Source: Bacteroidaceae bacterium
GTDB lineage: Bacteria > Bacteroidota > Bacteroidia > Bacteroidales > Bacteroidaceae
Direction of reading: 5' to 3'
Assembly: GCA_045660365.1 (NCBI GenBank)
Contig: JAZRDQ010000008.1
Location: forward strand, 72,506-136,505
Length of the DNA stretch: 64,000 bases
Part shown: one piece after another, positions 6,391 to 30,016 of the stretch
How positions within the stretch are numbered: position 1 is the stretch's first letter
Layout of the letters: every line of letters starts with the position of its first letter
Made by a program: the position numbers and the translations under genes
Notes under the pieces: model-generated
Database searches by the model: none
What the model saw: the letters and a program-made list of their open reading frames with translations, nothing else
Told to the model about the DNA's origin: nothing

Positions 6391-7710
6391 GTGAGTAAGG
6401 GACAGAACAACATAATAAGTACATTGATTTTAATATTAACCTCTCATTTTGTTGGGTGGGTTAAGGCTGCGCCTATGAGTCCTGATGTGAATTTGGTTTC
6501 CCAGGACTCATTCTACGTTGATTCAGTCTATATTAATCTTTTTGAAAATTCCACCACAGATGTCCTTTTTAAACTGAATGATGAAAAACTGTATGAAGAC
6601 TACAGAGACAATGCTCTGGCGCTGGATAAGTTGCATCGCATATTGGATTCTGTTGATGTTCAGGATGTTCTGGAAGTGGAAATTGTTGTCCAGTCATCTC
6701 CTGAAGGCGTATATCTTCGAAATAAGTGGCTTACAGAGCATCGTACCCAGGTAATAAGTGATTATATGAATAAAAACTGGCCTGTGCTTGCCGGCAGAAC
6801 CACTTTGCATAGTGTAATAGAGGCCTGGGATGATTTGGAATTCTATGTAAATGAGGATACGTTGTTATCAGACAAAAGCAAACAGAGAATTCTGAATGTG
6901 ATTAATCCAAAAGACAGCATCAGTATAGAGACCAAGAAATGGCGTATGGAGAACAGACTGGGTTATGACCCGGCTGTCGGAGCTGTTTACAGATATCTGT
7001 ATCGCAAATATTATCCAGTCCTGAGAGGTGCAGGTGTGCAGATTAAGTACAAGAATCGTAATGTGCAGACAGTGTTTCCAATGGTTGGACTAACTGTAAA
7101 ACCTTTACCTGATAGAATTGAAGAGAGAGAATATCCTGCGGTGGAAGAACCTGTTGTAAGGAAAGAGCCTGTAATAGTTGCGGCTCTTAAGACCAACCTC
7201 CTGTTTGATGCAGCAATGGCTCCGAACGTAACATTGGAGATACCAATAGGAAAGCATTTCTCAATCCATTTTGAGGATATATTTCCATGGTACAGTAACG
7301 GATACAAGCAGTGTTATGAATTATGGGTTATGGGTCCGGAGGTAAGATTTTGGTTCAGAACTCCTGAAAAGCGCAATGAAAAGTTGCGTGGTCATTTTGT
7401 GGGATTATACGGATATGCCGGTCTCTATGACTTCCAGAACTATTTTGATTTCTGTTATCAGGGCGATTTATGGTCAGTGGGCGCAACATACGGATATTCA
7501 TTCCCTATTGGCAAAAAGAAAAAGTGGAACCTTGAGGCTGCAGCTTCAGTAGGTTATTCAAATATCAACTATCAGCACTATTATCCATCACTTAACTATG
7601 ATCGTTTGATTCGTGATGTGAACAAGGTGGGTAGAATAAAATATCTTGGGCCGACAAATGTAAAAGTTTCATTGGTAAGACCAATCAATTTAAAACTTAA
7701 AAGCAAATAA
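6391..7710 (+). CDS. Outer-membrane beta-barrel protein, DUF3575-like C-terminal half with an OmpA-like N-terminal region; first gene of pilus-like locus 1
   Basis: 439 aa with an N-terminal signal-like segment. The OmpA-like block is VQSSPEGVYLRNKWLTEHRTQVISDYM. The C-terminal block LKTNLLFDAAMAPNVTLEIPIGKHFSIHFEDIFPWY...GPEVRFWF...GHFVGLYGYAGLYDF shows an alternating beta-strand pattern typical of DUF3575. It is paralogous to 46475-47779. Confidence 0.65.
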   Translation: MSKGQNNIISTLILILTSHFVGWVKAAPMSPDVNLVSQDSFYVDSVYINLFENSTTDVLFKLNDEKLYEDYRDNALALDKLHRILDSVDVQDVLEVEIVVQSSPEGVYLRNKWLTEHRTQVISDYMNKNWPVLAGRTTLHSVIEAWDDLEFYVNEDTLLSDKSKQRILNVINPKDSISIETKKWRMENRLGYDPAVGAVYRYLYRKYYPVLRGAGVQIKYKNRNVQTVFPMVGLTVKPLPDRIEEREYPAVEEPVVRKEPVIVAALKTNLLFDAAMAPNVTLEIPIGKHFSIHFEDIFPWYSNGYKQCYELWVMGPEVRFWFRTPEKRNEKLRGHFVGLYGYAGLYDFQNYFDFCYQGDLWSVGATYGYSFPIGKKKKWNLEAAASVGYSNINYQHYYPSLNYDRLIRDVNKVGRIKYLGPTNVKVSLVRPINLKLKSK

Positions 7711-7721
7711 GCTGTACGGAT

Positions 7722-8822
7722 ATGAATAGAAGGGCAAATACATTAATGATGTTTCTGATGACGTTAATTCTTTTGACGTCATGTGAATTGCGTCCGCTCA
7801 GCGATCTTAATAAGAATCTGTTGCTGCGTCTGCGTGTTAATCTACAGATACAGAATGTTACTGAAACTCCAAAGGTTGAGGTAATGCGTGTAATTTTCTA
7901 TGATCCCAAAACAAATCGTCGTTTTACAGAAGATTACGTGCCTTCTGAAGGTGGCTACATAAGTGTACCTCCCGGTGACTATAAGCTTATAATCTACAAC
8001 TTTGATACAGAATCAACCCTAATAAGAAATGATGCGCAATTGTATCAGATGGAGGCTTATACCAATGAGATCTCACAGCAACTTAAGAATAAAGCTTTCA
8101 GTGTAATTGAAAGGTCTAAGTCCGAGATAGAAAAGGGTGCCCCATCTCGCAGGGTGCGTACTCGTGCAGAAGGCGACACTCTCAATATAGAAGATGATGA
8201 TATAGTAGGCGATACAATCTCAAATGAAGATAAGGAGTGGGCAGAATCTATGGATGGTATTGAGAATACCAAAATTGTATATGAACCTGATCATCTTTTT
8301 GTGGCACGCGATAATGTTACCATCTTTAACGATGTGGAAGAGCAGGTGGTGGAGGTTGAGGCCGAAACAGTTGTTGAAACCTATTATTTGAGTGTAAGGG
8401 TAAAGAATATCAAGCACATGGCATCAGCAAATGCATTGCTTACAGGCCAGATAGGTTCTAACTTTATTGGCTATCCGAAGGAGGAGGGTAAATCGGACGA
8501 TAATGTATCGCTATACTTTCCGCTTTATGCAGCAACCGATGAAACTGAAAACGATAAGGTACACAGTACATTCAATACCTTCGGTAAAATGCCGGGTAAA
8601 GAGACAAAATTGTGGCTAACCATATTTCTTACTACCCAATCTGGTCAGACAGTAGAATGGCATAAGGATATTACAGAGGAATTCATTGATAATCCTGACC
8701 ATAAGATTGAGATTGAAGAAGATGCAATTATTGTTCCCGATCCTCCTGCAGGCAGTGGTGGCGGTGGTTTCCAGCCAGGTGTGTCAGAGTGGGAAGAGGA
8801 AAATCATTACATAGAACTATAA
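7722..8822 (+). CDS. Lipoprotein, candidate FimB/Mfa2-type pilus anchor (DUF5119-like)
   Basis: 366 aa with lipobox LLTSC. It lies 11 nt downstream of the barrel gene and ends GGGGFQPGVSEWEEENHYIEL. It is paralogous to 48109-49317 (GGGFNASVENWGNEYNASVTI). The family name is recalled from gene context, not from a search. Confidence 0.5.
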   Translation: MNRRANTLMMFLMTLILLTSCELRPLSDLNKNLLLRLRVNLQIQNVTETPKVEVMRVIFYDPKTNRRFTEDYVPSEGGYISVPPGDYKLIIYNFDTESTLIRNDAQLYQMEAYTNEISQQLKNKAFSVIERSKSEIEKGAPSRRVRTRAEGDTLNIEDDDIVGDTISNEDKEWAESMDGIENTKIVYEPDHLFVARDNVTIFNDVEEQVVEVEAETVVETYYLSVRVKNIKHMASANALLTGQIGSNFIGYPKEEGKSDDNVSLYFPLYAATDETENDKVHSTFNTFGKMPGKETKLWLTIFLTTQSGQTVEWHKDITEEFIDNPDHKIEIEEDAIIVPDPPAGSGGGGFQPGVSEWEEENHYIEL

Positions 8823-8834
8823 TTATAGAGAGAT

Positions 8835-9845
8835 ATGCTAAAGGTATTTAAAAAAATGTCAGTTTTAGGAGTTGCATTGGGAATGTTGTCCTCTTGTGCA
8901 ACGAATGAAACATTTATGCCTGAAACTACAGAAATTGGTTTTAATGCGGTAACAGGTAATGCTACAAAAGCAATATTGTCGGCTGGAACATTACCAACTA
9001 CTGCATCATTTGATGTTTGGGGCTTCTATTCTAACGATGGCTCATTTGCAGAGTTTAGCGATAATTCATTATCAAACTTTATGAGTGGCCTGACAATAGA
9101 GTGGACATCAGGAAATGATGAGAGTCGTCCTGAAGCCTGGCGTAATAAAGAAAAATATTACTACTGGCCAACAACTGGTGTGATAGGTTTCTATGCTCTT
9201 TATCCTTCAGGACTGAATGGAGTACAAAAACCTGAGTTCAAAGGTAGAGGTCTGCAGATAGATGACTACACAATAGACATCACATCAAAGTACACAGACT
9301 TAATGTATGCATACACTATGGGTACAAATCGTACAACTGCATTGCCAATTCAGTTCAAGCATGCTTTATCGCAGATAGAGTTTAAGGTAAAACTTGAAGA
9401 GAACTATCCGGATGTGGAGTTCTATGTAGAAAAGATAGAACTGCAGAATGTTGATTTACAGGCTACATTTAACTATGTACAGCCATCAAGCGTTTCTATA
9501 TGGACAAATAATACTGATAACCAGACAGAGTCGTTGAAATATTCAGATGAATCAATAAAGCTATCTTCTGAAACTCAAGTATATTCTTCGGCTATGGTAA
9601 TGTTGCCTCAACAACTAAGCAAGGCTGATACTGCTGAAACAGCAATCAGCATATTGTATAAAATGGTTCAGGCAGACGGAACAATTATGGATGGAACTAT
9701 GGTGAAAGTTATATCTACTTTGCAACCATCGTGGGAACAAAGTACAAAATATGTATATACACTTAACTTCAATTTGAACGAAATTACATTCAATCCGGAA
9801 ATAACAGACTGGACAGAAATAAGTGTAAACCAGATTATGAAGTGA
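8835..9845 (+). CDS. Fimbrillin-like lipoprotein, paralog 1 (Mfa_like_1-type)
   Basis: Lipobox LSSC. Family blocks: EIGFNAV..ATKA, YYYWP, DLMYAY, FKHALSQIEF, MLPQ, KYVYTLNFNLNEITFNPEITDW. Confidence 0.7.
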   Translation: MLKVFKKMSVLGVALGMLSSCATNETFMPETTEIGFNAVTGNATKAILSAGTLPTTASFDVWGFYSNDGSFAEFSDNSLSNFMSGLTIEWTSGNDESRPEAWRNKEKYYYWPTTGVIGFYALYPSGLNGVQKPEFKGRGLQIDDYTIDITSKYTDLMYAYTMGTNRTTALPIQFKHALSQIEFKVKLEENYPDVEFYVEKIELQNVDLQATFNYVQPSSVSIWTNNTDNQTESLKYSDESIKLSSETQVYSSAMVMLPQQLSKADTAETAISILYKMVQADGTIMDGTMVKVISTLQPSWEQSTKYVYTLNFNLNEITFNPEITDWTEISVNQIMK

Positions 9846-9877: not shown

Positions 9878-9911
9878 CAGATCAATTAAAGTGCCTTAAA
9901 TAAAAAACAAT

Positions 9912-11935: not shown

Positions 11936-11950
11936 AAAAAAAGACAAGAT

Positions 11951-15192: not shown

Positions 15193-15363
15193 TTGCAAAG
15201 AGACTTATAGTACAAGCATTTTACAGAAGAATGCAGAAAGAATATTGATGTTGATTTTGGATGGACTTATGCCGATGAGGTTAGTAAATGACTAATTAAT
15301 TCGTAAAGTCAAGCCAGAAGGCATCAGAAGTCAGTGTAATAAAAAAGTATAAAAGTAAAAGAG

Positions 15364-16475: not shown

Positions 16476-17534
16476 ATGAGAAGATTTAGATACATATATA
16501 ATTGTACTTTGTTATTGGCAGTATCTCTGTTAATGGCATTGTCAGTATCGTGCAGTCGGGAAGATATAGACTTTTCGGAGAAGATTCCTATATCATTCAC
16601 AAGTAGTGTGGATAATTCAACAAAGGCATTGATAAGTGATGTTGCGGGTATTCAAACTACTGGATTTGGAGTAACTGCATATATAAATCAGAACAGTTCA
16701 TGGTTACCGGTAATGAATAACCAGAAGGTAGTTTATTCTGGTGGTAAGTGGGGATATTCTCCAGTATCATACTGGTCAAAAAATGATAGCTACACTTTTG
16801 CAGCTTATGCTCCTTATGGTTCTGCAACAGTTAATCTTAGTGTAGCAACAATGACGTTTGCTGATGTTCCCCGCTATCAGAATGTAATGACAGATGCAGA
16901 AAAAGCTAATGCAAAAGATATATTGACCGATGTAAAGAGTGGTTCATACAACAGCGAATTCAGAAATGGTGAAGTGCAGTTTGAACTGAAACATGAACTT
17001 GCTTATCTGGAAATCCGTGCAGTTAAGGCAGATATTGCAAGCATGAGAGATGTTACGTTTAAAGTAGCATCCCTTACATTGGGCGATGCACAGGATAAAA
17101 TGGCATCAACTGGTAACTGCACTTTTGTTAAAGGTATTCTGGATAATAATAAAACTACCTGGGGTACTACATCTTATACAGGCGATGGTAAATATACAAT
17201 AATAGGCTCTCTTTTGGATACCCCAATTCCAAATGAAGTTGATAAAAATCCATTGGTTTTATCACAAATGCTTATAGCCCCATTTGAATTTGGTGGAACT
17301 GAGGTTTCTCATAGTCTGCCATTCAATATTAGGTATAATAAGAATGATGGTAAAAATACTCCTTCAAACCACGATATTAAAGGTCATGCTATTACAATTA
17401 AAAAGTTTGAAGCGGGTAAAAAATATATAGTAACACTCAGATTCAACACAGCATCCAAGGTTGAAATAAATACAGTGGTGGTAGAGGACTGGACTGCAGG
17501 CACAACTTACGAACCTCCTGTATTTAACTGGTAA
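16476..17534 (+). CDS. Fimbrillin-like lipoprotein, paralog 8 (divergent)
   Basis: Lipobox SVSC. Blocks: ISFTS..STKA, SYWSKNDSYTFAAYAPY, FELKHELAYLEI, KYIVTLRF...VVVEDW. Confidence 0.6.
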   Translation: MRRFRYIYNCTLLLAVSLLMALSVSCSREDIDFSEKIPISFTSSVDNSTKALISDVAGIQTTGFGVTAYINQNSSWLPVMNNQKVVYSGGKWGYSPVSYWSKNDSYTFAAYAPYGSATVNLSVATMTFADVPRYQNVMTDAEKANAKDILTDVKSGSYNSEFRNGEVQFELKHELAYLEIRAVKADIASMRDVTFKVASLTLGDAQDKMASTGNCTFVKGILDNNKTTWGTTSYTGDGKYTIIGSLLDTPIPNEVDKNPLVLSQMLIAPFEFGGTEVSHSLPFNIRYNKNDGKNTPSNHDIKGHAITIKKFEAGKKYIVTLRFNTASKVEINTVVVEDWTAGTTYEPPVFNW

Positions 17535-17547: not shown

Positions 17548-18597
17548 ATGAACAGATATATTGACAAAATATTCGGAAAGTGGTTACTACTAGCGCTGTT
17601 TATGGTGCTGGCAGTGGGCTGTGCACAGGAATTCGATGAATGGGATAATGGTGTAAAGATAGAGTTTACTACACCTCATCTGCAGGATTTACAGGTAGAG
17701 ACCAGAGCAGTTTCAGGATATAGTGGAACCATATCCGGTAGTTCAAGCATGGGTGTTTTTGTTAGGGGAATTGTGAATGAAAGTACCATTACTTACAATG
17801 GCAGCAGCTGGGAATCGTCACTTAAACTGGATCCTGCTACATATAATATCTATTCATACATACCAAAGCGTAGCGGTGTGTCATTTAATGCAACAGGCAG
17901 CTACCCTGTAATCACTTTTACAGACGTACCATTTATAACAGATCAGGAGATACTTATCTCTTCCGGTGCAGTAGCAGAAACAGTTACATCAGATGGCGGT
18001 GTTTTTACTCCAAACGACATAACTGGCAGCTTATCTAAAAACAGTTATTCAATACGGGTAGAATCGAAAGAGAACTCCAGGAACTATGTAACCTTTATGA
18101 TGGACAGGGTTATGGCAAAGGTAATCCTGAACTTTAAAGTTCACAGCAAGTATGATGCAATCAGAACTGTAAAGATTAAGAAGGTAACATTGCAGCCAAC
18201 CAGTATTGTTGATATAGCATGTACATTAACCGATAAGGAGATAACATATCAGGGAAGTTCCACACAGTCAGCAACCTTATCTCCATTGGTGTATGACCAT
18301 AGTGGATTTGAGGTAGAAACTGATGCTGATGATGCAAATCCATTTGCAACATTCTATAGTGTACCTGGTGTTGAAAGTACAGTTAAGATGACAGTGGTTT
18401 ATGATGTTTATGATAAGTCGGGTACTTTGATTCGTGCCGATCAGGAGGTTACCAATGCATCAATCAAACTAATAGAATCGGGTACGTTACAGCGTGCCAA
18501 AGAGTATAAACTGAATATAAATATTGTGCCAACATATCTCTATTCTTTAAGCGATACAGATAAGGAAAGTGTTATGTTGATACAGTACAGTAATTAA
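17548..18597 (+). CDS. Fimbrillin-like lipoprotein, paralog 9 (most divergent; possible adaptor or tip-type subunit)
   Basis: Lipobox AVGC. Blocks: IEFTT...ETRA, MDRVMAKVILNF, EYKLNINIVP. It lacks the YYWP block and the terminal EIxFxPxVxDW strand. Confidence 0.5.
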   Translation: MNRYIDKIFGKWLLLALFMVLAVGCAQEFDEWDNGVKIEFTTPHLQDLQVETRAVSGYSGTISGSSSMGVFVRGIVNESTITYNGSSWESSLKLDPATYNIYSYIPKRSGVSFNATGSYPVITFTDVPFITDQEILISSGAVAETVTSDGGVFTPNDITGSLSKNSYSIRVESKENSRNYVTFMMDRVMAKVILNFKVHSKYDAIRTVKIKKVTLQPTSIVDIACTLTDKEITYQGSSTQSATLSPLVYDHSGFEVETDADDANPFATFYSVPGVESTVKMTVVYDVYDKSGTLIRADQEVTNASIKLIESGTLQRAKEYKLNINIVPTYLYSLSDTDKESVMLIQYSN

Positions 18598-18610: not shown

Positions 18611-21600
18611 ATGAATATATCCACAAATAGAAAACAGAAAACTTTGTTGGCAAGGGTACTCCGTCCACTCCTGCTTACACTGTCTGTTGTATGCAGCATG
18701 CCATTGCAGGCGCTCGTAATTAAAGGTGATGTGTATGGTGGCGGAAAGGAAGGTATGGTAGGTGTAGAAGGTACTCCTGCTCAGACCGATGTGGATATTA
18801 ATAGTGGAGAAGTTCGCACAGTATTTGGTGGCGGACAGGACGGAAAAGTGTATGGAACTACATCTGTAGATGTAACTGGTGGAACTATTGGTGCAGAAAA
18901 GTTTAATGGTTCCTTATATGGAGGTGTATATGGTGGTGGCGAAGGTGCTGAAGCTACAGTATTTGGTACTGCAAATGTAAATATGACAGCTGGCACTGTT
19001 GTGAATAATATATATGGCGGTGGTAAGATGGCTGCTTTACAGGGTAATACCAATGTTAAGATTTCTGGCGGTACAGTATCAGGATCTGTGTTTGGTGGTG
19101 CATGTATGGCAGATATTCAGGGCAGAACATACGTATGGATTAATGGTGGTGCTGATGCACTGAACATCGGCGCTGTTTATGGCGGTAACGATATATCTGG
19201 TAATGTATCATCCTATCTTTCAGTTGTGACCAACCCATATACTATACCTGTTGCAGCTATAGCAAATGATGACAACTGGAAAAACTGGAATGCCTTTGTA
19301 AGGGTAACCAAAGGGGCAGGAGAAGTAAATATAGGTTCATTGTATGGCGGCGGTAATGGTGATTATGGTTATGTTGGCACTGAAGGTAACTATTCCATTA
19401 CCTTGAAGGATTTTGCTCCGAATGGCACTGAAACAACAAGAATTCTTACAGTATCAAACAGACCAACATTGGGCAGAGTGCTTGTAGATGTTACAGGTGG
19501 AACATTCAATGCTATATATGGTGGCGGTAATAATGCAACAGTAACATTTTCTACCGATATATATCTTAATGGTGCAAATCTGACTGCAACAAATGTATTT
19601 GGTGGTAACAATAAGGCTGTAATGGCTATTCGCCCTACATGGCACCTGCATGATGCTACTATCACAAACCTCTATTCCGGAGGTAACCGTGGTGATATGA
19701 CCAGCCCGTCAGGTTTGTTACTTGCCATAGAGAGTGCATATCTGACCATAGAAAATGTGTATGGTGGTTGCCGTATGGCAAACGTATCTCCAACTGCTAC
19801 TCCAGGTGCAGAAACATATACAGCAACTGGCGGTAAATCTATCAGCTTCGATGGTGGATATGCAGCCCGCGTCTATATAGGTGGCGGTAAGGTTAAGAAC
19901 GTTTATGGTGGTAATGATATATCCGGTAAGGTGAATTATGGTGCAAACGTAGAGATATACAGTTCAATATCCGGCAGTATATATGGTGCGGGTAATGGTG
20001 CTTATCTTTATACTGACAACCCGGCCAATTCTTCATCTGATTTGTATTATATAAAAGGTGGAAATTCAGTTGCAGCACTATATGATTATCGTCCTCAGGT
20101 GGAAAAGACACTGTTGCATATTGCAGGTCCGGTAAATGATGATGGCACTCCAACTGAAAATCCGTTATATGTAGCAGGAAATGTGTTCTGTGGTGGTAAC
20201 TCAGCTCCACTAAAATCGGATGATACAAACGCAACCACTCAGTTCCGTATAGGTAAGAATGTTGTCATCAATGGTGTCTTCTTAGGTAGTAATGGAGAAC
20301 AGATGGTAGATCCTGAAGTTCTTAAATACTATGCTGATAATGCAAACTCTTCTATTGATTTGACTGATTCAGACCAGATGAAAGGTTATATGGATGGTGT
20401 ATCTGTCAACCTTAAACCATCTTTCTCCGTAGATTGGAAAGAGGAATTAACTCCGGACCAGACAGGAACATATATCGGTTCGCTCTATTTAGGCGGTAAT
20501 GTTGGTAGTTTAACTGCAACAGAGCAGATAGATGTAACTATTCCATCTTCAATCACCATTTATGAAAAGATAGTAGGTGGATCCAACAATGCTATTGTTG
20601 CTGCGAATAGTGGAATTAATGCGGAATATGTAGGTGGTGTAACAGAAACATCTTCTGGTGACTACAAACTGAAGATGACTGTTGCCAGCAGAATGGAACC
20701 TAAAACTCTGAATGCAACACTGGATGGTGAAGGTTATGTAACATCAGCATCGCTTGTCTGGAAAAAGTCAGCACCATCTGGTCTGGCGGAAGAAATTATT
20801 TCTGGTGCTAACATTTATGGTGGTTGTTATCAGAGTGGTGTAGTGAATGGTAATGTAATAATTGATGTAACTGATAATCTTATATCACAGAATATTATCT
20901 CTAAAAATCTCCATAAATATAATAGTGGTAGTACTGCGATAGGTGAATATGTATTTACCAATGCTATTTCTGTATTTGGTGGCGGTTATGGTGCAAACTC
21001 TACTATTAATGGTAACACTACCATCAACCTGAAAGAAAATGCTCAGGTGCTGAAGGTATTTGGAGGTGGTGAATTAGGTGCTGTAACAGGTAATACTTCT
21101 ATTAATCTGGATAAGAACCTGAAACAGCCTGCGGAAGGATTTTATAATGCATTTAAGGTGTATGGTGGTGGCTTGCAGGGTAATGTAGGCGGAACAGCAT
21201 CTGTTAATGTGCAGGGCGGTAAGTTCTTCGATGTATTCGGTGGCAGCTGTTTTGCTGATATTACCGGAACAGCAAAGGTTGTTATTGGTTCAGCAGAATC
21301 AGTGGGCAGCCAGACCCCATTGCTTATTGCTAACAACGTGTATGGAGCTAACGACTTTGGTGGAACAATTGGCGGTTCTGTAAGTTTTGGTCAATTAGCT
21401 TATGGTGGTAAATATGTGATGGCTCAGACAATGGTTCAGTACATATCGGGCGTTATTAATGGTAATATCTTTGGTGGCGCTAATGGTGCTTACGATTACG
21501 CATGGCAGTTCAGTAAAATCAATATGGAGGGAAAATATCCATTGTTGAATAAAGAGATAACTGAAAATAATGCATCATTTATAACCTCTAACACATTTGT

Positions 21601-24600
21601 TCATATAGCATCGCCTTCTACAAAAACAGATCAGATAAAAGGTGCTGTATATGGTGGCGGACAGGGATTCAGTGGTGCAACCGGTATAGTTGATGTAAAA
21701 GATACATACGTTCATCTGGCTGCTACAGGTACATATCAGGATCGTGTAACAAATGGTGCTGGCCCTTTGGTAAATAAGGTGTTTGGCGGAGCATACTATT
21801 CATACGTAGAGAAAACAACGGTTGATGCTGCAAGCGGATACTACAATGAGATATATGGAGGTACATTCGGCGCTACTCACAATGGCCTGCCAGTTGGTAT
21901 ATCCTATGACTGCGGAACTACAAATGTGAACATTTATGGTATGAATAATGCCAGTCTGAATGTTTATGGTGCAGGTGCAAAATCGGGTGCAACAACTACC
22001 AATGTTAAACTGTATGCGGGTAATATAGGTTATGCATACGGCGGATCTTTTGCTGAAGGTTATTGTGGTACAACAAATGTAACTATACCTGCAGGTTCTA
22101 CCATTACCGCAAAAGCTGTCTATGGAGGAAGTGTGGGCTCTGATGCTGGTTTGCCTTGTGATGTTGGACAATCTAATCTGACATTTGCATCAAATACTGC
22201 CTATATAACAGGCGAAGGCCTGTTTGGAGGTAACAAGAGCTATCGTGCTACACATAAAACCAATGTCAATATAACATCTCCTGTTCAGATAATGGCAGGT
22301 GAATATGCAAATGTATATGGTTCCGGACACGGTGAAAACACCATTACAGGTTTTGCAAAGGTTACACTATCAGATGGCGCACAGGTGGCTAATGTATATG
22401 GTGGCGCACTGGATGGTACTGTAAGATATGCATACGATGATAAATCGGGTGCACCAACATATTATGCAACTAATTTTGCTAAGTATGCGCACTGGGAATA
22501 TGAAGATCCTAAAACCGAATTGGAAAACAGAAATACCCGTATTATAATAGAAGAAGGTGCTACCGTTCAGGAGAATGTATTTGGCGGTGGCTATGGTGCT
22601 ACTGCTACGGTACATGGAGCAACAAGTGTAAGCCTTTTAGGAGGTATAGTAGAGGGCGATATTTATGGTGGTGGCTCTATGGGTAACATGGAACTGCTTG
22701 ACAAAGATAATGATGCAGGTAATAATATTCTCTCTATACTGGAAATATATGGTGGTAAGGTACGCCGAGTATTTGGTGGTGGCTTAGAAGGATATATAGA
22801 AGGTGAAACAGATGTACAGATAGGATTGCGCCAACAGGTTGAAGGCGGTAAGATTACCGACAAGGTGTATGCTTTGAATTCTAATAATTTAGTTGAAGCA
22901 GATATCGATTGGGGAAAACCTGCAGTTCTTCGTTCAGCGTATGGTGGTGGTGAACGCGGTAAAGTAACCAATACCAATATTACCATGAATAACGGTTATG
23001 TAGGTTACGATTACGATTATAAAACAGAAAAATATTTTCCGAACGTAAAACTACACAGTCAGGACGATCTGAATCTGCTTGCCAATAATGGTAACCTTTA
23101 TGGTGGTGGCTTTGGTGACGAGGCCTGGACAGTGAACACTCAGGTAACAATGTATGGTGGAAAAATCCGTCACTCACTTTATGGTGGTGGTGAAATAGCT
23201 TCGGTAGGTTTTGCCCCTATGAAGGTAGATGACGGAGTAGTTAAAGAGGTAGATTGGACTAGAACTGGAGAGATTACAGAAGGTAGTACTAAGGTAACAA
23301 TGTATGGCGGTACAGTAGAACGTGATGTATTTGGTGGTGGCCGTGGATTCAGTTATACACTGGCAGGTGCGTTAGAGGTTGAAAACGTATTCTATTCAAG
23401 TGGTTTTGTGTTTGGTAAGACCGAGGTCTATCTGCATCGCGGAACAGTTGGAACCGATGAAACTCTTAAAGACGAAGCAGGAAACGTATTTGGTGGCGGT
23501 AATATTGGTTATGTCTATTCTGTTAAGGGTAAAAAGAATGGTTACTCTCAGCAATTTACCACAGGACACTATTATGATAGAGAAGGAAAATATACAGAAG
23601 ACTGTAAGGTTCTTATCACTCCGGTAACAGTAGCTTTGGAGGATATAACAATAGGATCCAAATCATATAAAGCAGGCGATTTTGTTCCATGTTCCGATTT
23701 GAATACGCTCTATGCTAACGACTCAAGATGGAAGCAGATGGATGAACAGGGTGTTACAGTACGTAATGCAGTCTTTGCCGGTGGTAATGTAATTCAGGGT
23801 ACCGATATTATGACTGCCGATGTAAAGACCGTATTTGGTAATGTAACAGCATCAGTAGTGGATGTATTTGATTGCGATATGGTATCTGTAAGTACCGATA
23901 ATATCGGTGGTTTCTATGGAGATGGTAACTTAAGTCTTGTAGATGGTTACAGAGAACTGAATATAACTAACTATGGCACTGACTATCATAATCTTACACA
24001 TGAAATTACATACGATGATTACCAGAAAATGCATGCAAGAAAGAAAGCATATTATGAACTGAAATATCTATGTCTGGAAGCTCATGATTATAAAGATAAG
24101 AACAATAAAACACACTACTATGTAGAGGGTGATCAGATATCCGGTTCTGTATGGGGCAGCATGCCTGCAGAAGAACAGGCAAAGTGGAAACTTGCAGGTC
24201 TGGCAACACTATACGCAGGCAGAATGATTAACACCATACAGCGTGCCGATTTCTGTGGTGTTGTGGGTAGCAGAGTGGTGTTAAAGGGTGCACGTGATCG
24301 TGAAACAACTACTGCCGACTTTACCATGTACACCATTAACCGTCTGGATGAACTTTCACTGAATGAAGTTAAAACATATCCTATAGCCGGTTATAACCCT
24401 GATGGAACAAAAGACCATGGTTGTTACTTTGGTATATACAATGTGGTGAACTATTTAGGAGCAGTATCTTCCAACCTTAATTATTATACTGATGTTCGTA
24501 AAACACACAGTACAGAAGATATTTATAAGCCAGATCCAGAGAACCAGGATGAAACTTATTATGAATATAAGATGCGTCAGGCAGGAACAAAATTCCGTAA

Positions 24601-27600
24601 TAATGGTGAAAGTTCAAATATAATTGCACTTGCAGGTGGTGTATGGCTTGAAGTTGTAAGATCAATAAATGAACAGACAGGCAAAAAGGATTATGGACCT
24701 ATTACAGGTGTTATCCAGCTTGATCTTATAAATGTAGCACCTGGCGAGGGTGGTGGATATGTGTATGCCAAGAATATCCACGGAAAAAGAACACCTTCCG
24801 GTGAAGTGAACGTTACATTGGCCGAATCCAACAAAGATGCGGTATCGTACAAACTACATAAATATTCAGATGATCAGACTGAGCCATATGCATCATCCGG
24901 TAACTTTGTACATAGCCAGAAGCAGATTGTAGATGATTGCTATCCAAATAACGGCGATAAGAGTTCGCCTGCACACTATTGGTATGTACGTGGCGATTTC
25001 TACGTATATAACCAGACAATCTCTGCATATACCGGTACACCGCAGGCATATTCAGAGGATGTATCAATTCCTTTAACTATCACAGCAGGTGCAAATGGCA
25101 GACTGGAATTACTTGATATCTCCAAAAACTACTATGCATACTATACCGGATTGAATTATGGAGGCAGAGAACTGACTGCAGACGATTCTGTAAGAATTGG
25201 CGGACAGTATTACCATACCAACGATCCTATCAGCAGCTGGGATTATGAAAGACTTGCTACTCCTGAACAGGCCTTCTTTGTAGAGGAGACTTACGTATGT
25301 ATAGACGATGTGGTAAATATTGATGGGGAAGCAAAAGATTCTGAAGGCAGAGATCTGGGTGCGCTTGCGCTTGCATACAGGAAAGGCGATGTAATACTTC
25401 CGGCTAAGTTACAGGAACTGAAGGATTCAACTGTCAGGATTAAGATTCATGATCCGAATGCAAATACTGCCGATGCAACCCAGCTGGTTCCAGTATCCTA
25501 TTTCTTCCATCCAACAAACAATATGAGTAAGGATGAAGGATTCCTGCTTACATTCAAAATTAATAACCCTGCAGTATGGAATGATTACTATACACAGGCA
25601 TCGGGTGCTCCAAACCAGATTAGCTTAGCAACATATAATGATGGTAAAACCAATAAGGAACTATATGTGTCAGGTCCGTCGTTCTTGAATACAACAGGTG
25701 GTATATATGGACAATATACATATAATGCCGGCGATATTATAGATGATGAAGTATATAATGAACAGCAGAATTTGCTGAAGGATGCTACGGATAAGGGAGT
25801 GGCATCTCCAACCGGACAGGCTGTATTTGAAATAGCATACGTGGCAACAGAAAATGTACATGTTAATACCTCCAATGGCAATGGTGGTGAAACAGATATG
25901 TATATTACTGAAGGTAACGTAATTTCAAAAACAGATTATGATAGAGCCAGCAATGAAAAGATACGAAGGCATTTTGAAAAGGCAGTATTGTGTACACAAA
26001 CATTCGAATTTGCTCCGGAAGAGTGGTACTATTATGGTGATATATTGCAGCAGTCTGAATTTGATAAGCTGAATGCATCTGATAAAAAGAATTTCTCTGT
26101 CAATACATGGCTCTGTACCGCTACAGGTAATTTTGGTGGTCACCTGTTTATAGTGCAGAACAGTTATGATGCACTGCAATATGCGGGAGTCCAGCCGGAT
26201 GAGCGTAAGAATTTCTCTTTTAATAAAGATGCTCTGGATTTGTTGAGTACCAATTTCTCAAAAGATCTGCATGGATACGATCCGTCTGCAAATTATGATC
26301 CTAATACAGAAAACGATGGCTATCGTTACAGCAATCCTACAAGAGTTGATTATACAGCGGTTTATAATGGTACAGGTCTGGGTGTTTCCGGTCTGGGAAT
26401 ATCAGATATAGATGGCAACCCATTGGAAGTAATCAGTAAAGGCACAAAACTGAACAATGTGAATTATGAAAAGCTTCCGAATGAGAAGATGAACTTTGCT
26501 CTGGTAAATGTAACCGATGAACATCTGCGTGTTGATAACAATGCAGAGCCACCTAAAGCAAAGAATACATTCTATGTGGTTAAGAAGACATTTAAGGTTG
26601 GCGATGTTTATTATGCAAGGGGCAGAGTGCTTACCGACACAGAATTTACTAAATTACCGGTTGATGATAATGTGAGGAATAATAATGTAATGCATTATAC
26701 ATTCAATTCACAAGGAACTTATTATGTATGTCTGAATGATTTCAGCAACCAGCAGAAACTAATAAAGATTAATCCTGAGAGTGATGGTTCATATAATAGT
26801 GCAAACAATAATAATAAAGCTGATGTTGCTGCAGGAACCATAAAAGAAGGAACTGTTATTACAACCACTTCGTACGCAGAGAACGTAGTGAATATGCAGA
26901 CTAACTTCTCTGTTCAGGGAACTATGCCTACAGAAACATCAACGCTGTATGTTCCAAGAAGTGCCGATGTAAGAGACCTGTCGGAAGATAAGATAGTAAC
27001 AGTTGTATATAAGTATTCTTATCTGGAGAGCGATCTGGCAGGTAACAACTTTGAAGAGATAGTAGAACGTCATATTGTAAATATCAGGGTACACTTTGAG
27101 AGTGGTGTGCCTAAGATTGGCGATCTGCAGACTCCTCAGACAGTATTGCCTGGCGAAGTACTTGGTATGAACACACCTCCTGTAACACCTGGTGCTTACG
27201 AAATTATGGGTGGTGGATTTGAGATCTTTGCTAACGAACAGGATGCATTTGCTCATAAGAATGGTGTTGCATATCAGCAGGGACGTGCTCCACTATACTG
27301 GTATCAGAATGAATACTGGATAGCATACTATGCAAAGACATACTTAGGTAAAACTTATTCAAATCCGGTAAGATTATCCGTTGCCAACTATCATAGACTG
27401 AAAGATGTACTTGAACATCCGGAATATATGTATGTGGATTCTATAACTGATACATATTCAAATAAACCTGCAATGTTGCGTAATCCAAAGATTTACATAA
27501 ATAATGATGTGTTTACAGCAAAAGTAGGTGATGAGGAGAAACAATTTAATGAGTTTGACTACCTGATTAAGTTGTATAATGAACATTTGCATATTGGAAA

Positions 27601-30016
27601 AGATTATGTGCCAGATCCAAATAATAAGCCTGACAGGTATATAAATGGTCAGATACAGTATGCCAAGAATCTGGAATTTATATTGCAGAGTGATGTGGAA
27701 CCATTATACTATAAAGATAAAGACTGGACACTTGGCGGTGATGGTGATAACTGTTTCCAGGGTAATCTGCATGGTGATGGTTACACCATAAGTGGTTTGA
27801 CCCACTCATTGTTCAATAAGCTATGCGGTAATGTATATAACTTAGGTGTTACCGGTTCATTTACAGGTGCAGGTATATCAGACAACGGAGGTGCAGTATA
27901 TAACAGTTGGATTTCAACAACCGGAATTACAACTACTGCTCCGATAATTGCAGATGGTGGCTCTGCTGTCAATTCATATTACAACAGCATACAGTACACT
28001 GGTAGTTATGCTAATGGTGCTACAGCAGCCACAACACGTGAATTTACTGATGGTACAGTAGCCTATAACCTGAATGGATACTATCAGCAGAAGCGCAATG
28101 ATATATCGGCAGGTAAAAAGCGTGATGGTTCCGATGGAGCATATCTGCAGAATAATGGTCTGTCTGTATTACCATCATTGCAGAGTATTGCAGCTACTGC
28201 CACATCAGCTAAGTATGGAAATTCGGATTATGTGGAAGAGCGTATGAAAAGTGGTGATTTCCGTTACGAAAAGGGTGAAGTTCCATACCGTGTAGGCGAA
28301 ATCAGATTTATAGAGGGTAATCCTGATCAGGGCACTGCTGCGAAATTTGTACCTCTGTATCCGGATGATTATATCTTCTTTGGACAGAACCTAACATACG
28401 GTTTAAGTCAGAGTAAAGACCATGATAACCTGCCTGACAGAGTTGCAAAGCGTACCTATAACTATTCAAGGACTGTAGAAGATGTAACTACAAACTATCA
28501 GCCGGAACTGATAGATGCAACAACAGTTGCCGATAACCGTGTATTCCGTGTTCCGGTTTATACAACGCAATCTCCAACAGCAGTAGCAGGTGGTGTTCAC
28601 TACAACAGAGATGCTGTATTTACAGATACCTATAACGCAATTGTTATGGACAGAGATGTAACAGCAATTGACTTTACAGGTAATGCGAGTGCAAGTGACG
28701 CATTGTTTGAAAACAGCCTGCTGGATATGCCTGAGCTACGCAGCTTCTACCTGAAGGGTCTTACAAAGAACCTGTTGGTATATGCTGAAGCAGGAGGAGA
28801 GGCAACTTATAAACTGCTTGACGAAGCTGCTAAGGAACCTGAACTTGATATTCAGCAGAATAACTATAATTCTGTTGACAGAATTGTACAGGAGCCTATG
28901 TTCCATCTGGTAGGTAAACAGATTAATGGAGAATACAGAGCAACATCTGACCACTTTATTGTGGATAAACAGAACTTTGCAGCACCAATATCATATAGCT
29001 TTAATGATAACTACTATATGTGGTATCAGCGCGACCCAGCTTACCATGCCAATAGTAGTTCAGATGGCTGGGAAGGTTTGATTCTTCCATTTACTGCCGA
29101 TCTGGTGACTACACAGGACAAGGGTGAAATAACTCACTTCTATGGAGATTCTGATAAGGGGCATGAGTATTGGCTGCGTGGCTTTACAGGAATATCAGAT
29201 GCTAAAGCACAGTTTGCCCGTCCACAGGAAGGTGCTGGCTATGCAAAGTATGAAGATCATAATGGAAATAATCCATATAGAGTGAGCAATAGTTATCTGT
29301 ATGACACATATTACAGTAAGAACAGCAGAAACGATAAAAACAGTGATAAATACTTTGAGTATTACAATGGTACACGTGAATATTCAGATTACCTGCTGAC
29401 TACTCAGAATATGCCATATATTGTGGCTTATCCTGGTGTGGCATACTATGAATTTGATATGTCAGGTAAATTTGTTCCAGGGAATACTGCAACACCTGCT
29501 CCGGAAGAACTGGATAAGCAGATAGTAACCTATGTCTCTGTAGCTAATCAGGTAATTCCTGTATATAATGCGTCAGGTCTGGTAACATCTGCAGGTGGAT
29601 ATACATTGTATGGTTCTTATCTGAATACCGACATTGCAGATGCAGATTACAAAGTTGATGCAACAGGTGCCGGATTTGAACGTGTGCAGAATTCCGATGT
29701 GGCTGTACCATTCCGTGTATATCTGAAGAAGAACGGATCTGCAGCACCAACCAGAGGAAATGTTCTTGATTATATTCCAATAAGTGGCAGTGAAGATTAT
29801 ATAGCAGAACAGGCACCATTGAAGGGATTGAATATCTATGGCAGGAACAATGTAATATACATAGAATCTGCTCTTGACTATGAAACTATGGTTACAATAT
29901 ATTCAACATCGGGACAGATTATTGCAAGAGTGAAGGTGGCTCCGGGAACTACGGTAAAAGTGCCTGTTAATGCAAATGGAGTATATATTGCAAATAGACA
30001 GAAGATAGTTATATAA
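18611..30016 (+). CDS. Giant (3801 aa) secreted GG-repeat (predicted parallel beta-helix) surface protein with a T9SS-type C-terminal sorting domain
   Basis: One uninterrupted 11.4-kb ORF starting 13 nt after paralog 9, with a Sec signal (LLLTLSVVCSMPLQA). Dozens of V[YF]GGG-centred repeats run from about nt 18725 to about 23930. A non-repetitive central region follows. Near 27751-27960 there is a GLUG-like stretch (FQGNLHGDGYTISGL...NLGVTGSF). The last about 70 aa (LNIYGRNNVIYIES...VTIYSTSGQIIARVKVAPGTTVKVPVNANGVYIANRQKIVI) look like a type A T9SS CTD. Confidence 0.8.
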   Translation: MNISTNRKQKTLLARVLRPLLLTLSVVCSMPLQALVIKGDVYGGGKEGMVGVEGTPAQTDVDINSGEVRTVFGGGQDGKVYGTTSVDVTGGTIGAEKFNGSLYGGVYGGGEGAEATVFGTANVNMTAGTVVNNIYGGGKMAALQGNTNVKISGGTVSGSVFGGACMADIQGRTYVWINGGADALNIGAVYGGNDISGNVSSYLSVVTNPYTIPVAAIANDDNWKNWNAFVRVTKGAGEVNIGSLYGGGNGDYGYVGTEGNYSITLKDFAPNGTETTRILTVSNRPTLGRVLVDVTGGTFNAIYGGGNNATVTFSTDIYLNGANLTATNVFGGNNKAVMAIRPTWHLHDATITNLYSGGNRGDMTSPSGLLLAIESAYLTIENVYGGCRMANVSPTATPGAETYTATGGKSISFDGGYAARVYIGGGKVKNVYGGNDISGKVNYGANVEIYSSISGSIYGAGNGAYLYTDNPANSSSDLYYIKGGNSVAALYDYRPQVEKTLLHIAGPVNDDGTPTENPLYVAGNVFCGGNSAPLKSDDTNATTQFRIGKNVVINGVFLGSNGEQMVDPEVLKYYADNANSSIDLTDSDQMKGYMDGVSVNLKPSFSVDWKEELTPDQTGTYIGSLYLGGNVGSLTATEQIDVTIPSSITIYEKIVGGSNNAIVAANSGINAEYVGGVTETSSGDYKLKMTVASRMEPKTLNATLDGEGYVTSASLVWKKSAPSGLAEEIISGANIYGGCYQSGVVNGNVIIDVTDNLISQNIISKNLHKYNSGSTAIGEYVFTNAISVFGGGYGANSTINGNTTINLKENAQVLKVFGGGELGAVTGNTSINLDKNLKQPAEGFYNAFKVYGGGLQGNVGGTASVNVQGGKFFDVFGGSCFADITGTAKVVIGSAESVGSQTPLLIANNVYGANDFGGTIGGSVSFGQLAYGGKYVMAQTMVQYISGVINGNIFGGANGAYDYAWQFSKINMEGKYPLLNKEITENNASFITSNTFVHIASPSTKTDQIKGAVYGGGQGFSGATGIVDVKDTYVHLAATGTYQDRVTNGAGPLVNKVFGGAYYSYVEKTTVDAASGYYNEIYGGTFGATHNGLPVGISYDCGTTNVNIYGMNNASLNVYGAGAKSGATTTNVKLYAGNIGYAYGGSFAEGYCGTTNVTIPAGSTITAKAVYGGSVGSDAGLPCDVGQSNLTFASNTAYITGEGLFGGNKSYRATHKTNVNITSPVQIMAGEYANVYGSGHGENTITGFAKVTLSDGAQVANVYGGALDGTVRYAYDDKSGAPTYYATNFAKYAHWEYEDPKTELENRNTRIIIEEGATVQENVFGGGYGATATVHGATSVSLLGGIVEGDIYGGGSMGNMELLDKDNDAGNNILSILEIYGGKVRRVFGGGLEGYIEGETDVQIGLRQQVEGGKITDKVYALNSNNLVEADIDWGKPAVLRSAYGGGERGKVTNTNITMNNGYVGYDYDYKTEKYFPNVKLHSQDDLNLLANNGNLYGGGFGDEAWTVNTQVTMYGGKIRHSLYGGGEIASVGFAPMKVDDGVVKEVDWTRTGEITEGSTKVTMYGGTVERDVFGGGRGFSYTLAGALEVENVFYSSGFVFGKTEVYLHRGTVGTDETLKDEAGNVFGGGNIGYVYSVKGKKNGYSQQFTTGHYYDREGKYTEDCKVLITPVTVALEDITIGSKSYKAGDFVPCSDLNTLYANDSRWKQMDEQGVTVRNAVFAGGNVIQGTDIMTADVKTVFGNVTASVVDVFDCDMVSVSTDNIGGFYGDGNLSLVDGYRELNITNYGTDYHNLTHEITYDDYQKMHARKKAYYELKYLCLEAHDYKDKNNKTHYYVEGDQISGSVWGSMPAEEQAKWKLAGLATLYAGRMINTIQRADFCGVVGSRVVLKGARDRETTTADFTMYTINRLDELSLNEVKTYPIAGYNPDGTKDHGCYFGIYNVVNYLGAVSSNLNYYTDVRKTHSTEDIYKPDPENQDETYYEYKMRQAGTKFRNNGESSNIIALAGGVWLEVVRSINEQTGKKDYGPITGVIQLDLINVAPGEGGGYVYAKNIHGKRTPSGEVNVTLAESNKDAVSYKLHKYSDDQTEPYASSGNFVHSQKQIVDDCYPNNGDKSSPAHYWYVRGDFYVYNQTISAYTGTPQAYSEDVSIPLTITAGANGRLELLDISKNYYAYYTGLNYGGRELTADDSVRIGGQYYHTNDPISSWDYERLATPEQAFFVEETYVCIDDVVNIDGEAKDSEGRDLGALALAYRKGDVILPAKLQELKDSTVRIKIHDPNANTADATQLVPVSYFFHPTNNMSKDEGFLLTFKINNPAVWNDYYTQASGAPNQISLATYNDGKTNKELYVSGPSFLNTTGGIYGQYTYNAGDIIDDEVYNEQQNLLKDATDKGVASPTGQAVFEIAYVATENVHVNTSNGNGGETDMYITEGNVISKTDYDRASNEKIRRHFEKAVLCTQTFEFAPEEWYYYGDILQQSEFDKLNASDKKNFSVNTWLCTATGNFGGHLFIVQNSYDALQYAGVQPDERKNFSFNKDALDLLSTNFSKDLHGYDPSANYDPNTENDGYRYSNPTRVDYTAVYNGTGLGVSGLGISDIDGNPLEVISKGTKLNNVNYEKLPNEKMNFALVNVTDEHLRVDNNAEPPKAKNTFYVVKKTFKVGDVYYARGRVLTDTEFTKLPVDDNVRNNNVMHYTFNSQGTYYVCLNDFSNQQKLIKINPESDGSYNSANNNNKADVAAGTIKEGTVITTTSYAENVVNMQTNFSVQGTMPTETSTLYVPRSADVRDLSEDKIVTVVYKYSYLESDLAGNNFEEIVERHIVNIRVHFESGVPKIGDLQTPQTVLPGEVLGMNTPPVTPGAYEIMGGGFEIFANEQDAFAHKNGVAYQQGRAPLYWYQNEYWIAYYAKTYLGKTYSNPVRLSVANYHRLKDVLEHPEYMYVDSITDTYSNKPAMLRNPKIYINNDVFTAKVGDEEKQFNEFDYLIKLYNEHLHIGKDYVPDPNNKPDRYINGQIQYAKNLEFILQSDVEPLYYKDKDWTLGGDGDNCFQGNLHGDGYTISGLTHSLFNKLCGNVYNLGVTGSFTGAGISDNGGAVYNSWISTTGITTTAPIIADGGSAVNSYYNSIQYTGSYANGATAATTREFTDGTVAYNLNGYYQQKRNDISAGKKRDGSDGAYLQNNGLSVLPSLQSIAATATSAKYGNSDYVEERMKSGDFRYEKGEVPYRVGEIRFIEGNPDQGTAAKFVPLYPDDYIFFGQNLTYGLSQSKDHDNLPDRVAKRTYNYSRTVEDVTTNYQPELIDATTVADNRVFRVPVYTTQSPTAVAGGVHYNRDAVFTDTYNAIVMDRDVTAIDFTGNASASDALFENSLLDMPELRSFYLKGLTKNLLVYAEAGGEATYKLLDEAAKEPELDIQQNNYNSVDRIVQEPMFHLVGKQINGEYRATSDHFIVDKQNFAAPISYSFNDNYYMWYQRDPAYHANSSSDGWEGLILPFTADLVTTQDKGEITHFYGDSDKGHEYWLRGFTGISDAKAQFARPQEGAGYAKYEDHNGNNPYRVSNSYLYDTYYSKNSRNDKNSDKYFEYYNGTREYSDYLLTTQNMPYIVAYPGVAYYEFDMSGKFVPGNTATPAPEELDKQIVTYVSVANQVIPVYNASGLVTSAGGYTLYGSYLNTDIADADYKVDATGAGFERVQNSDVAVPFRVYLKKNGSAAPTRGNVLDYIPISGSEDYIAEQAPLKGLNIYGRNNVIYIESALDYETMVTIYSTSGQIIARVKVAPGTTVKVPVNANGVYIANRQKIVI

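Follow-up and report, generated by a model that had tools for sequence, protein, structure and literature searches.

A probable type V pilus operon of twelve genes, with seven stalk-type fimbrillins and a giant secreted protein, in an uncultured herbivore-gut Bacteroidaceae bacterium

What would a gut bacterium build from a run of twelve genes in which nine tandem lipoproteins stand ahead of a secreted protein of 3,801 residues? The question is raised by positions 6391-30016 of a 64-kb stretch (the window) of contig JAZRDQ010000008.1, part of a metagenome-assembled genome from an uncultured herbivore-gut Bacteroidaceae bacterium. The answer favored here, at a probability of roughly 60%, is that the genes, g1-g12, form one operon encoding a type V pilus of the FimA/Mfa class, which enlarges the Mfa1-5 plan of Porphyromonas gingivalis. 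FimA/Mfa1-class type V pilins are exported as lipoproteins, cleaved and polymerised by strand exchange, and the Porphyromonas fim and mfa operons have about five structural genes.

An earlier note on this DNA had described twelve co-directional genes set 5-66 nt apart with one gap of 171 nt. Its coordinates are reproduced by the window's list of open reading frames (ORFs) and their translations, in which all twelve lie on the + strand:

6391..7710, + strand: g1, outer-membrane protein, 439 aa, OmpA-like in the N-terminal half and with DUF3575 as its C-terminal domain
7722..8822, + strand: g2, anchor-type pilin lipoprotein (FimB/Mfa2 class), 366 aa, lipobox LLTSC
8835-9845, + strand: g3, stalk-type fimbrillin, 336 aa, Mfa_like_1
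9912-10892, + strand: g4, stalk-type fimbrillin, 326 aa, Mfa_like_1
10934-11935, + strand: g5, stalk-type fimbrillin, 333 aa, Mfa_like_1
11951-12997, + strand: g6, stalk-type fimbrillin, 348 aa, by BLASTP and the A2 profile
13025-14134, + strand: g7, stalk-type fimbrillin, 369 aa, by BLASTP and the A2 profile
14170-15192, + strand: g8, stalk-type fimbrillin, 340 aa, Mfa_like_1
15364-16470, + strand: g9, seventh stalk-type fimbrillin, 368 aa, Mfa_like_1
16476..17534, + strand: g10, accessory (adaptor-type) pilin, 352 aa, Mfa_like_1 at E 3.8e-21
17548..18597, + strand: g11, second accessory pilin, 349 aa, without a Pfam family
18611..30016, + strand: g12, secreted giant, 3,801 aa

All nine lipoproteins g3-g11 share the type V pilin fold. 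The fimbrillin (Mfa_like_1) assignment made in the earlier note is borne out by Pfam for six of the nine and by BLAST, an AlphaFold model and Foldseek for the others. Mfa_like_1 (PF13149) is matched by g3, g4, g5, g8, g9 and g10 at 75-97 bits against a curated cutoff of 27, with E-values of 1e-21 to 1e-27 for g3, g4, g5 and g8, 7.8e-21 for g9 and 3.8e-21 for g10; Pfam returns nothing for g6, g7, g11 and g12, even at E<=10. Both g6 and g7 match the other stalk paralogs by BLASTP at E 1e-16 to 1e-55, and match the A2 profile, an alignment of g5 homologues and the window's paralogs, at 1e-87 to 1e-90. The same profile matches the PDB pilins 4qb7 (6e-20), 4k4k (2e-10), 3ufi and 3t2l. The AlphaFold model of g5 is all-beta, with a mean predicted local distance difference test score (pLDDT) of 84 and a predicted TM-score (pTM) of 0.76, and its 17 Foldseek matches at E<=1e-3 are without exception Bacteroidales type V pilins or Mfa4, headed by 3t2l, 4qb7, 4k4k, 3ufi and Mfa4 and including, among others, BF1858, BVU_2522, BACUNI_00621 and BACOVA_04980. 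Although the g11 model is weak, at pLDDT 63, Foldseek again ranks type V pilins first for it (4qb7 at 2e-8, the FimA prepilin 6jzk at 6e-7), and the model retrieves the target set of g5 together with the FimA prepilin and FimA pilus (E 2e-8 to 5e-6). Gram-positive pilins enter the lists for g5 and g11 only at low probability and with TM-scores <0.25. The SusE/F-like or other non-pilin folds once raised as the refuting alternative are rejected, since all structural matches that reach significance are to type V pilins.

Within this shared fold the lipoproteins divide into two groups. The nine stalk-type paralogs first proposed become seven, g3-g9, with g10 and g11 set apart as a separate conserved accessory pair. 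In all-against-all BLASTP, g3-g9 are related over their full length at 22-39% identity (E 1e-13 to 1e-64), strongly diverged as had been stated, with a similarity far beyond chance. The ordered blocks ascribed to all nine lipoproteins (lipobox Cys, (E)IxF, [TS][KR][AT], YYWP, DLMY, FNHALSQIxF, IPQ, KYxYTLN and EIxFxPxVxDW) hold for g3-g9, hold weakly for g10 and fail for g11, which is related by fold only. Identity between g9 and g3-g8 is 23-27% (E 1e-14 to 1e-17), and every motif block is there in variant form. Matches of g10 to g3-g9 are weak (BLASTP 1e-4 to 1e-6) and its blocks are degenerate (YWS, DILT, LKHELAYL, IAP). For g11, which has no match in Pfam and NCBIfam and a BLASTP link within the locus to g10 only (7e-4), the blocks are mostly missing: the I-x-F strand survives at the N-terminus, Arg fills the K/R position, and KEYKLNI is still present.

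The duplications that gave rise to the paralogs are old, because no DNA-level tandem repeats are found in the locus. Every one of g3-g11 has a 1:1 orthologue, at 62-79% identity, in each of two sister-species loci (L007 and L008), which also contain one additional paralog, and the contrast with the 22-39% between paralogs indicates that each stalk paralog is old and individually retained. Recent tandem amplification and silent cassettes were considered as the origin of the array and rejected, given the lack of DNA repeats, the 22-39% identity, the intact signals and a sister-species orthologue for each gene.

The lipoproteins also carry the sequence elements that pilus assembly would call for. 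A hydrophobic lipoprotein signal followed by [ASG]C at residues 18-26 is present in all 10 of g2-g11. After the lipobox Cys, g3-g10 continue with an acidic stretch (e.g. CAKEE or CAKDE), which we take to resemble the Bacteroidota lipoprotein surface-export signal, then a short E-I-G-F strand and T/S-K-A/T. The conserved Lys of this last element falls 22-25 residues past the Cys in g3-g10, and an Arg falls 28 past it in g11. At the C-terminus, the block E-I-x-F-x-P-x-V-x-D-W is found in g3-g9 and a variant of it in g10. Conservation among the paralogs is highest in the N-terminal strand, at the Lys position and in the C-terminal strand, as would be expected if the paralogs can insert into one another. 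The conserved elements of g3-g10 match in position the pro-segment strand, Arg/Lys cleavage site and donor strand of type V pilin assembly (PMC12632263, PMC13655056).

At the head of the locus, the profile checks suggested earlier (DUF3575, DUF5119 and Mfa2) give a match for g1 and matches above cutoff for g2. The profiles place g2 among the anchor-class pilins: it passes both DUF5119 (PF17145; E 2.6e-24, 86.5 bits) and Mfa2 (PF08842; E 1.3e-7, 32 bits against a cutoff of 21.2) and matches PDB entry 5cag (BACOVA_02677) at 2e-13. Residues 264-429 of g1 match Pfam DUF3575 (PF12099) at 111 bits (E 4e-32), and g1 is 33% identical across 395 aa to the DUF3575 protein (46448-47779) of a second pilus locus in the window. 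In both, DUF3575 is preceded by a conserved N-terminal half, ~200 residues long, that carries an OmpA-like S-S-P-E-G...N-K-W-L-T-E-x-R motif, an arrangement opposite to the domain order of OmpA; among longer relatives (634-817 aa), Pfam gives faint or weak OmpA matches. No sequence match to g1 was found in the PDB and no functional study of DUF3575 in the searchable literature. At about 170 residues, the DUF3575 domain would be too small for an usher-like pore.

At the other end of the locus stands the giant, always together with g10 and g11, which are lipoproteins of the pilin fold and distinct from each other. The giant has the following parts:

aa 1-35, + strand: Sec signal of g12, read from sequence
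aa 41-1650, nt 18731-23560, + strand: about 32 Gly-rich V-Y-G-G-G repeats
about 2,000 residues between the repeats and the tail, + strand: non-repetitive region
aa 3001-3715, nt 27611-29755, + strand: conserved C-terminal module
aa 3716-3801, nt 29756-30013, + strand: tail resembling a type IX secretion system (T9SS) sorting domain of type A

The N-terminus of g12 reads MNISTNRKQKTLLARVLRPLLLTLSVVCSMPLQA, with the first repeat next, and its relatives have the same layout (the Sec signal was read by eye). The repeats take the form ...G-G-x-h-x-x-x-[VIL]-[YF]-G-G-[GAS]-x-x-G-x-V-x-G-x-T-x-V... at a spacing of about 26-35 residues, which suggests a beta-solenoid. No domain match was found for g12 in Pfam (E<=10; searched whole and in four 1,000-aa pieces), NCBIfam or the PDB, and a nine-sequence profile of the giant family likewise found no match in the PDB. 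The C-terminal module contains a C-F-x-G-x-L-H-G-x-G-Y-T-I-x-G-L stretch reminiscent of GLUG-type motifs; Pfam gives no match to it.

The earlier claim that g12 is a T9SS cargo holds for its family and less well for g12 itself. The isolated tail scores 20.3 bits (E 4e-4) on TIGR04183 (Por_Secre_tail), against a cutoff of 23, and a scan of the whole protein gives no match; 24 of 27 giant-family tails match the model, the best at 2.4e-7. A G-V-Y-I-V...K-K-x-x-V-K ending occurs in the tails of nearly all full-length giants. A profile of the family tails searched against the PDB reaches the T9SS cargo HBP35 at E 0.5, which is not significant. The T9SS type A tail is thus convincing at the family level only. 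No T9SS component was found among the genes of the window.

Homologues of the giant were sought with its last 800 aa and its first 1,200 aa as queries. The former yields 117 homologues, two of which NCBI annotates as proteins with a T9SS type A sorting domain; the latter, in an exhaustive search, yields 817 representative clusters at E<=1e-3 and 184 at 1e-30. The members are mostly 3,300-4,700 aa long, with a maximum of 5,576 aa, and nearly all full-length giants have a signal peptide, an I-G-G-N-V-Y-G-G-G-N start and a tail like the T9SS C-terminal domain (CTD). The C-terminal 800-aa module is also found on gene calls of 900-1,390 aa in Prevotella and Bacteroidaceae assemblies, many of which are fragments on short contigs; one such protein with the module, P0037 (1,387 aa), lies on a 226-kb contig.

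The association of this giant with pilin genes can be followed through related loci, which comprise six metagenome contigs of the same species (L001-L006) and 16 loci beyond the source species (L007-L012, L018, L019, L021-L025 and L026-L028). L007-L012 come from uncultured Bacteroidaceae or Bacteroidales of buffalo, yak, reindeer and horse and were found by scanning species-representative genomes with a g11-family alignment. A metagenome scan gave nine more loci, of which seven were long enough to analyse (L018, L019 and L021-L025), and L026-L028 were picked through three distant giants found by their own N-termini. The order g10-like, g11-like, giant holds in 16/16 loci, wherever the sequence extends far enough upstream, and a g11-family gene lies directly upstream of the giant in each related locus, those of the distant giants included. 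All 16 also show a [YFH]-N-W C-terminus in the g10 family and P-[TS]-[YF]-L-x-x-L-S-[DNE]-x-D near the C-terminus of the g11 family. Given this constant order and these signature C-termini, g10, g11 and the giant constitute a conserved module. The number of further fimbrillin-type lipoprotein genes in the available flanks upstream of this triad ranges from zero to at least seven. A complete small version (DUF3575, anchor, one fimbrillin, triad) is seen in L009 and L010, and L019, L021, L022 and L027 have at least six more fimbrillin-type genes in the 10-kb flank. The giant itself also varies: in Candidatus Colenecus caballi (L012, 3672-13656) it has just 1,859 aa, with another large ORF of >1,469 aa directly behind it, and in L027 a 981-aa protein with Mfa_like_1 and Flg_new_2 (24388-27333) comes after a giant of 4,698 aa.

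Whether the twelve genes are transcribed together is addressed by their spacing and by three further features:

6116..6390, + strand: upstream non-coding region and presumed operon promoter, AT-rich, 275 nt, separating g1 from a divergent Wzx-like gene
15193..15363, no strand assigned: long intergenic gap between g8 and g9, 171 nt, the sole long gap of the operon
30041..30081, no strand assigned: bidirectional intrinsic-terminator-like hairpin closing the operon, with AAAAA, stem CCTCGGT...ACCGAGG and TTTTTTT, read from sequence

The intergenic spacings are, in order, 11, 12, 66, 41, 15, 27, 35, 171, 5, 13 and 13 nt. The scan for terminator-like sites found none on the + strand in the intergenic spaces within the locus, and the hairpin starts 25 nt past the g12 stop, facing a convergent glycosyltransferase gene. 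The one-operon reading is based on these short gaps between co-directional genes, the lack of an internal terminator-like site and the hairpin after g12. The upstream region contains a single near-match to the Bacteroides -7 box, TAACTTCG at 6305; a sigma-70 promoter scan of the locus returned no more sites than chance, as expected in Bacteroidota, and no Rfam families were found within the locus. The 171-nt gap lies where L007 (6735-7799) and L008 (6741-7805) hold their extra 354-aa fimbrillin gene, of which no remnant was found in the gap by blastn or tblastn. Its first ~75 nt are conserved across strains, even beside a g8 that has been replaced by a 40%-identical allele, and the gap could be the site of an internal promoter.

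An imperfect inverted repeat of 22 nt (82% complementary, arms 6142-6163 and 6431-6452) encloses the upstream region together with the initial 20 codons of g1. Its placement resembles the layout of an invertible promoter, and it may be a chance match; such a promoter was rejected for lack of evidence, as the orientation of the segment is identical in 6/6 strain contigs.

If g1-g12 specify a type V pilus, assembly could proceed as follows. The ten lipoproteins g2-g11 would be lipidated and flipped to the cell surface, where a Lys/Arg-specific surface protease would cut past the conserved Lys (Arg in g11), about 22-28 residues from the Cys. Loss of the N-terminal strand would open a groove, to be filled by the C-terminal strand E-I-x-F-x-P-x-V-x-D-W of the next subunit, and the fibre would grow from tip to base until closed and tethered by the still-lipidated anchor g2. 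The giant would pass the outer membrane via the T9SS and be caught at the distal end by the g10/g11 pair, as by Mfa3/Mfa4 toward Mfa5. Its N-terminal Gly-rich repeats would probably fold into a beta-solenoid, a long rod on which the non-repetitive C-terminal region is held away from the cell as the binding part. Because conservation in g3-g9 is strongest in the strand motifs at the N- and C-terminal ends, the seven paralogs are probably mutually compatible and probably co-assemble into a mixed stalk. The weakest step concerns g1, which may be an outer-membrane and cell-wall-tethered base and not an usher. By analogy with known pili, we infer that the stalk may be heteropolymeric and the giant displayed on the fibre.

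A bolder proposal is offered tentatively, with the odds running against it: that g10-type and g11-type pilins and the giant are a widespread, undescribed module that couples two export systems of Bacteroidota. A T9SS beta-solenoid of 3,000-5,500 residues would be handed to adaptor pilins as the distal functional part, and the stalk would be no homopolymer but an ordered heteropolymer, in which the paralogs follow one another in gene order, each in one or a few copies.

Several results weigh against the pilus operon as set out above. The T9SS tail of g12 scores below the NCBI cutoff for TIGR04183, and a search by regular expression found no pilin-like donor-strand motif in the giant. The g11 model is of low confidence (pLDDT 63), and Foldseek fits the models of g5 and g11 to generic pilins no worse than to Mfa3 or Mfa4. 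The 171-nt gap might divide the locus into two transcripts. In addition, Pfam and a PDB sequence search detect neither a von Willebrand factor A (vWA) domain in g12 nor any similarity to Mfa5, of which the PDB includes N-terminal structures (PMC7835359). The earlier placement of the giant in the Mfa5 position therefore survives in part: the conserved synteny of g10, g11 and the giant supports the analogy, and with no vWA domain and no similarity g12 is an analogue of Mfa5 by position and export route only, not a member of its family.

These results leave some room for a rather unlikely alternative, the best placed of those considered. The giant would be an independent T9SS adhesin that loses its CTD and is fixed to the cell via anionic lipopolysaccharide (LPS) instead of being mounted on a pilus; g10 and g11 would be its dedicated partners or chaperones with a pilin fold, and g2-g9 a separate, co-transcribed pilus. 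LPS attachment is the default fate of type A T9SS cargo (PMC10202324), and the missing donor-strand-like motif fits such a protein. Stalk-type genes upstream of the triad number one each in L009, L010 and L012, and none is recognised in the available flank of L025, L026 and L028, so that the triad can exist with few or no recognisable stalk neighbours. However, the triad follows fimbrillins in every locus that reaches far enough upstream, with DUF3575 and the anchor where seen (L009, L010, L011, L019-L024 and L027), and g10 still matches the Mfa_like_1 profile and keeps both the conserved Lys and a C-terminal ...DW strand like that of the stalk, as for a polymer subunit. Mfa5 is moreover a T9SS cargo that does join a type V fibre (PMC8512630).

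Strain variation bears on what the fimbrillins themselves may do. The six same-species contigs agree at 97-100% identity in the flanking genes and in g1-g5, with g2 100% identical at the protein level. Divergence from the window is seen in g6 and g7 (75% identity in L001), g8 (40% in L002-L005; 365 vs 340 aa), g10 (73%) and g11 (79-80%), and some strain alleles of g6-g11 are nearer the sister-species orthologues in L007 and L008 than the window's copy. The pattern suggests long-lived allelic lineages (trans-species polymorphism) or inter-species recombination, and looks like that usual for exposed antigens; such deep lineages within one species mark g6-g11 as targets of strong diversifying selection.

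The allele replacement in g8 is one reason to consider a further alternative, which is improbable: that the pilin-fold lipoproteins are non-polymerising or short-oligomer surface proteins, a binding set or coat to which nine genes give binding breadth or antigenic variety. Replacement of this kind would suit exposed antigens that are under diversifying selection, many Bacteroidales proteins of the 'fimbrillin family' have never been shown to polymerise, and antisera to the subunits of one such locus revealed no typical fimbriae (Comstock review, PMC12632263). Yet the best-conserved blocks of the paralogs (N-terminal strand, Lys cleavage position, C-terminal strand) are those needed for strand exchange, an anchor-class gene is present, and the fold matches polymerising pilins, FimA included. 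Less probable still is that g3-g9 are alternatives, the stalk being made mainly from one or few of them per cell or strain by post-transcriptional choice or competition and the array serving antigenic or phage-receptor variation: the alleles of g6-g11 within the species differ as much as orthologues do between species and occur in more than one species, and the extra paralog of L007 and L008 points to a flexible copy number, but all the genes have intact starts and lipoprotein signals in one direction at 5-66 nt spacing, no invertible element was detected, and the 1:1 sister-species orthologues argue for a maintained, non-redundant role of each paralog.

How unusual the locus is can be judged first within the window, which holds a second, smaller locus of the same general kind:

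43765-46265, - strand: two divergent AraC-family regulator genes before the second pilus locus
46448-55110, + strand: second, smaller type V pilus locus, with DUF3575 (443 aa), DUF5119 (402 aa) and Mfa_like_1 (362, 363, 509 and 624 aa)

Loci of other Bacteroidales that carry near homologues of g5 (L013, L015 and L016) have two AraC genes, DUF3575, DUF5119 and five Mfa_like_1 genes, and their arrays continue with proteins of about 495, 750-830 and >900 aa, the last of which has FimE_C. DUF3575 followed by an anchor and many fimbrillins is a standard layout, annotated and unstudied, and arrays of at least five fimbrillins are common. Since such arrays are common, the window has a second locus and the layout with a giant recurs in at least 16 loci, the g1-g12 locus is not unique. 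What is distinctive is the length of the array, the T9SS giant and the two adaptors. The earlier note had known of no such described system, and this stands to the extent that a search of the searchable literature for Mfa5-like proteins or giant T9SS proteins with fimbrillins found nothing. The locus represents a recurrent variant of the type V pilus, coupled to a very large putative T9SS cargo and not described in searchable papers.

The operon sits between surface-glycan genes. Upstream (1106-6115, - strand) are genes for a sulfatase-family protein, a PfkB kinase, an SIS isomerase and the Wzx-like flippase; downstream and convergent (30080-33818, - strand) are those for a GT2-Stealth fusion protein, a TupA-like ATP-grasp protein and an octopine-dehydrogenase-like protein. 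No regulator gene adjoins g1-g12.

Even in P. gingivalis, the way in which a T9SS cargo like Mfa5 becomes part of a type V pilus has yet to be worked out, and this family of loci provides hundreds of natural variants of the problem, each with two signature adaptor pilins. The seven retained stalk paralogs, eight in the sister species, show that type V pilus operons can far exceed the studied loci of 2-6 genes and prompt one to ask if heteropolymeric type V stalks exist. The giant, with about 3,700 residues outside any recognised domain, is likely a major surface structure of herbivore-gut Bacteroidaceae, and its probable roles include attachment to plant fibre, host mucus or other microbes.

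Among known systems, the mfa operon of P. gingivalis encodes the stalk Mfa1, the anchor Mfa2, the accessory proteins Mfa3 and Mfa4 and the tip Mfa5; Mfa3 binds Mfa1, Mfa4 and Mfa5, and Mfa5, located at the fimbrial tip, has a T9SS C-terminal domain and requires this CTD and PorU for export (PMC8512630). Like the Mfa1 fimbria, the g1-g12 locus combines a stalk, an anchor and two accessory pilin-fold proteins with a last gene for a large non-pilin protein, which ends in a T9SS domain in Mfa5 and in a T9SS-like tail in g12. The mfa5 gene is variable and sometimes duplicated, to which the second large ORF after the giant in L012 may be compared. Unlike the mfa operon, which has five genes and one stalk gene, the locus has twelve genes and seven stalk genes, with the anchor ahead of the stalk genes and a DUF3575 gene heading the operon. 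Mfa5 has 1,228 aa and a vWA domain, whereas g12 has 3,801 aa and lacks one, and g10 and g11 have no specific similarity to Mfa3 or Mfa4.

Gut Bacteroidales loci such as Phocaeicola vulgatus BVU2678-2683 and B. thetaiotaomicron BT3147-3148 share the pilin fold and families with g1-g12. Type V pili of gut Bacteroidales reportedly belong to a FimA superfamily, a description attributed to Xu et al. in 2016. The order of DUF3575, DUF5119 and several Mfa_like_1 genes is common to L013, L015, L016 and the window's second locus. In contrast to the present twelve genes, the described loci have 2-6, several of them are switched by invertible promoters, none of which was detected at g1-g12, and the long arrays of L013, L015 and L016 end in FimE_C-type tip proteins of 500-1,100 aa, with no T9SS giant. 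Gut Bacteroidales pili follow an anchor, stalk and tip logic (PMC12632263).

Two further systems offer likenesses of a looser kind. Flavobacterium SprB is a very large, repeat-rich T9SS surface adhesin, as g12 would be, but it has a type B CTD, rides the gliding machinery and is not linked to pilin genes; g12 differs in its type A-like tail and its strictly conserved pair of pilin-fold partners. The tip fibrillae of chaperone-usher pili (PapK-E-F-G) serve as an analogy only, as their fold, export route and assembly machinery are unrelated and no usher or chaperone is present at g1-g12. They too are built from paralogous subunits of one operon, which by strand complementation form an ordered heteropolymer presenting an adhesin, and if the tentative proposal of an ordered stalk and adaptor module is true, that combination would be the type V counterpart of the ordered chaperone-usher tip fibrillum.

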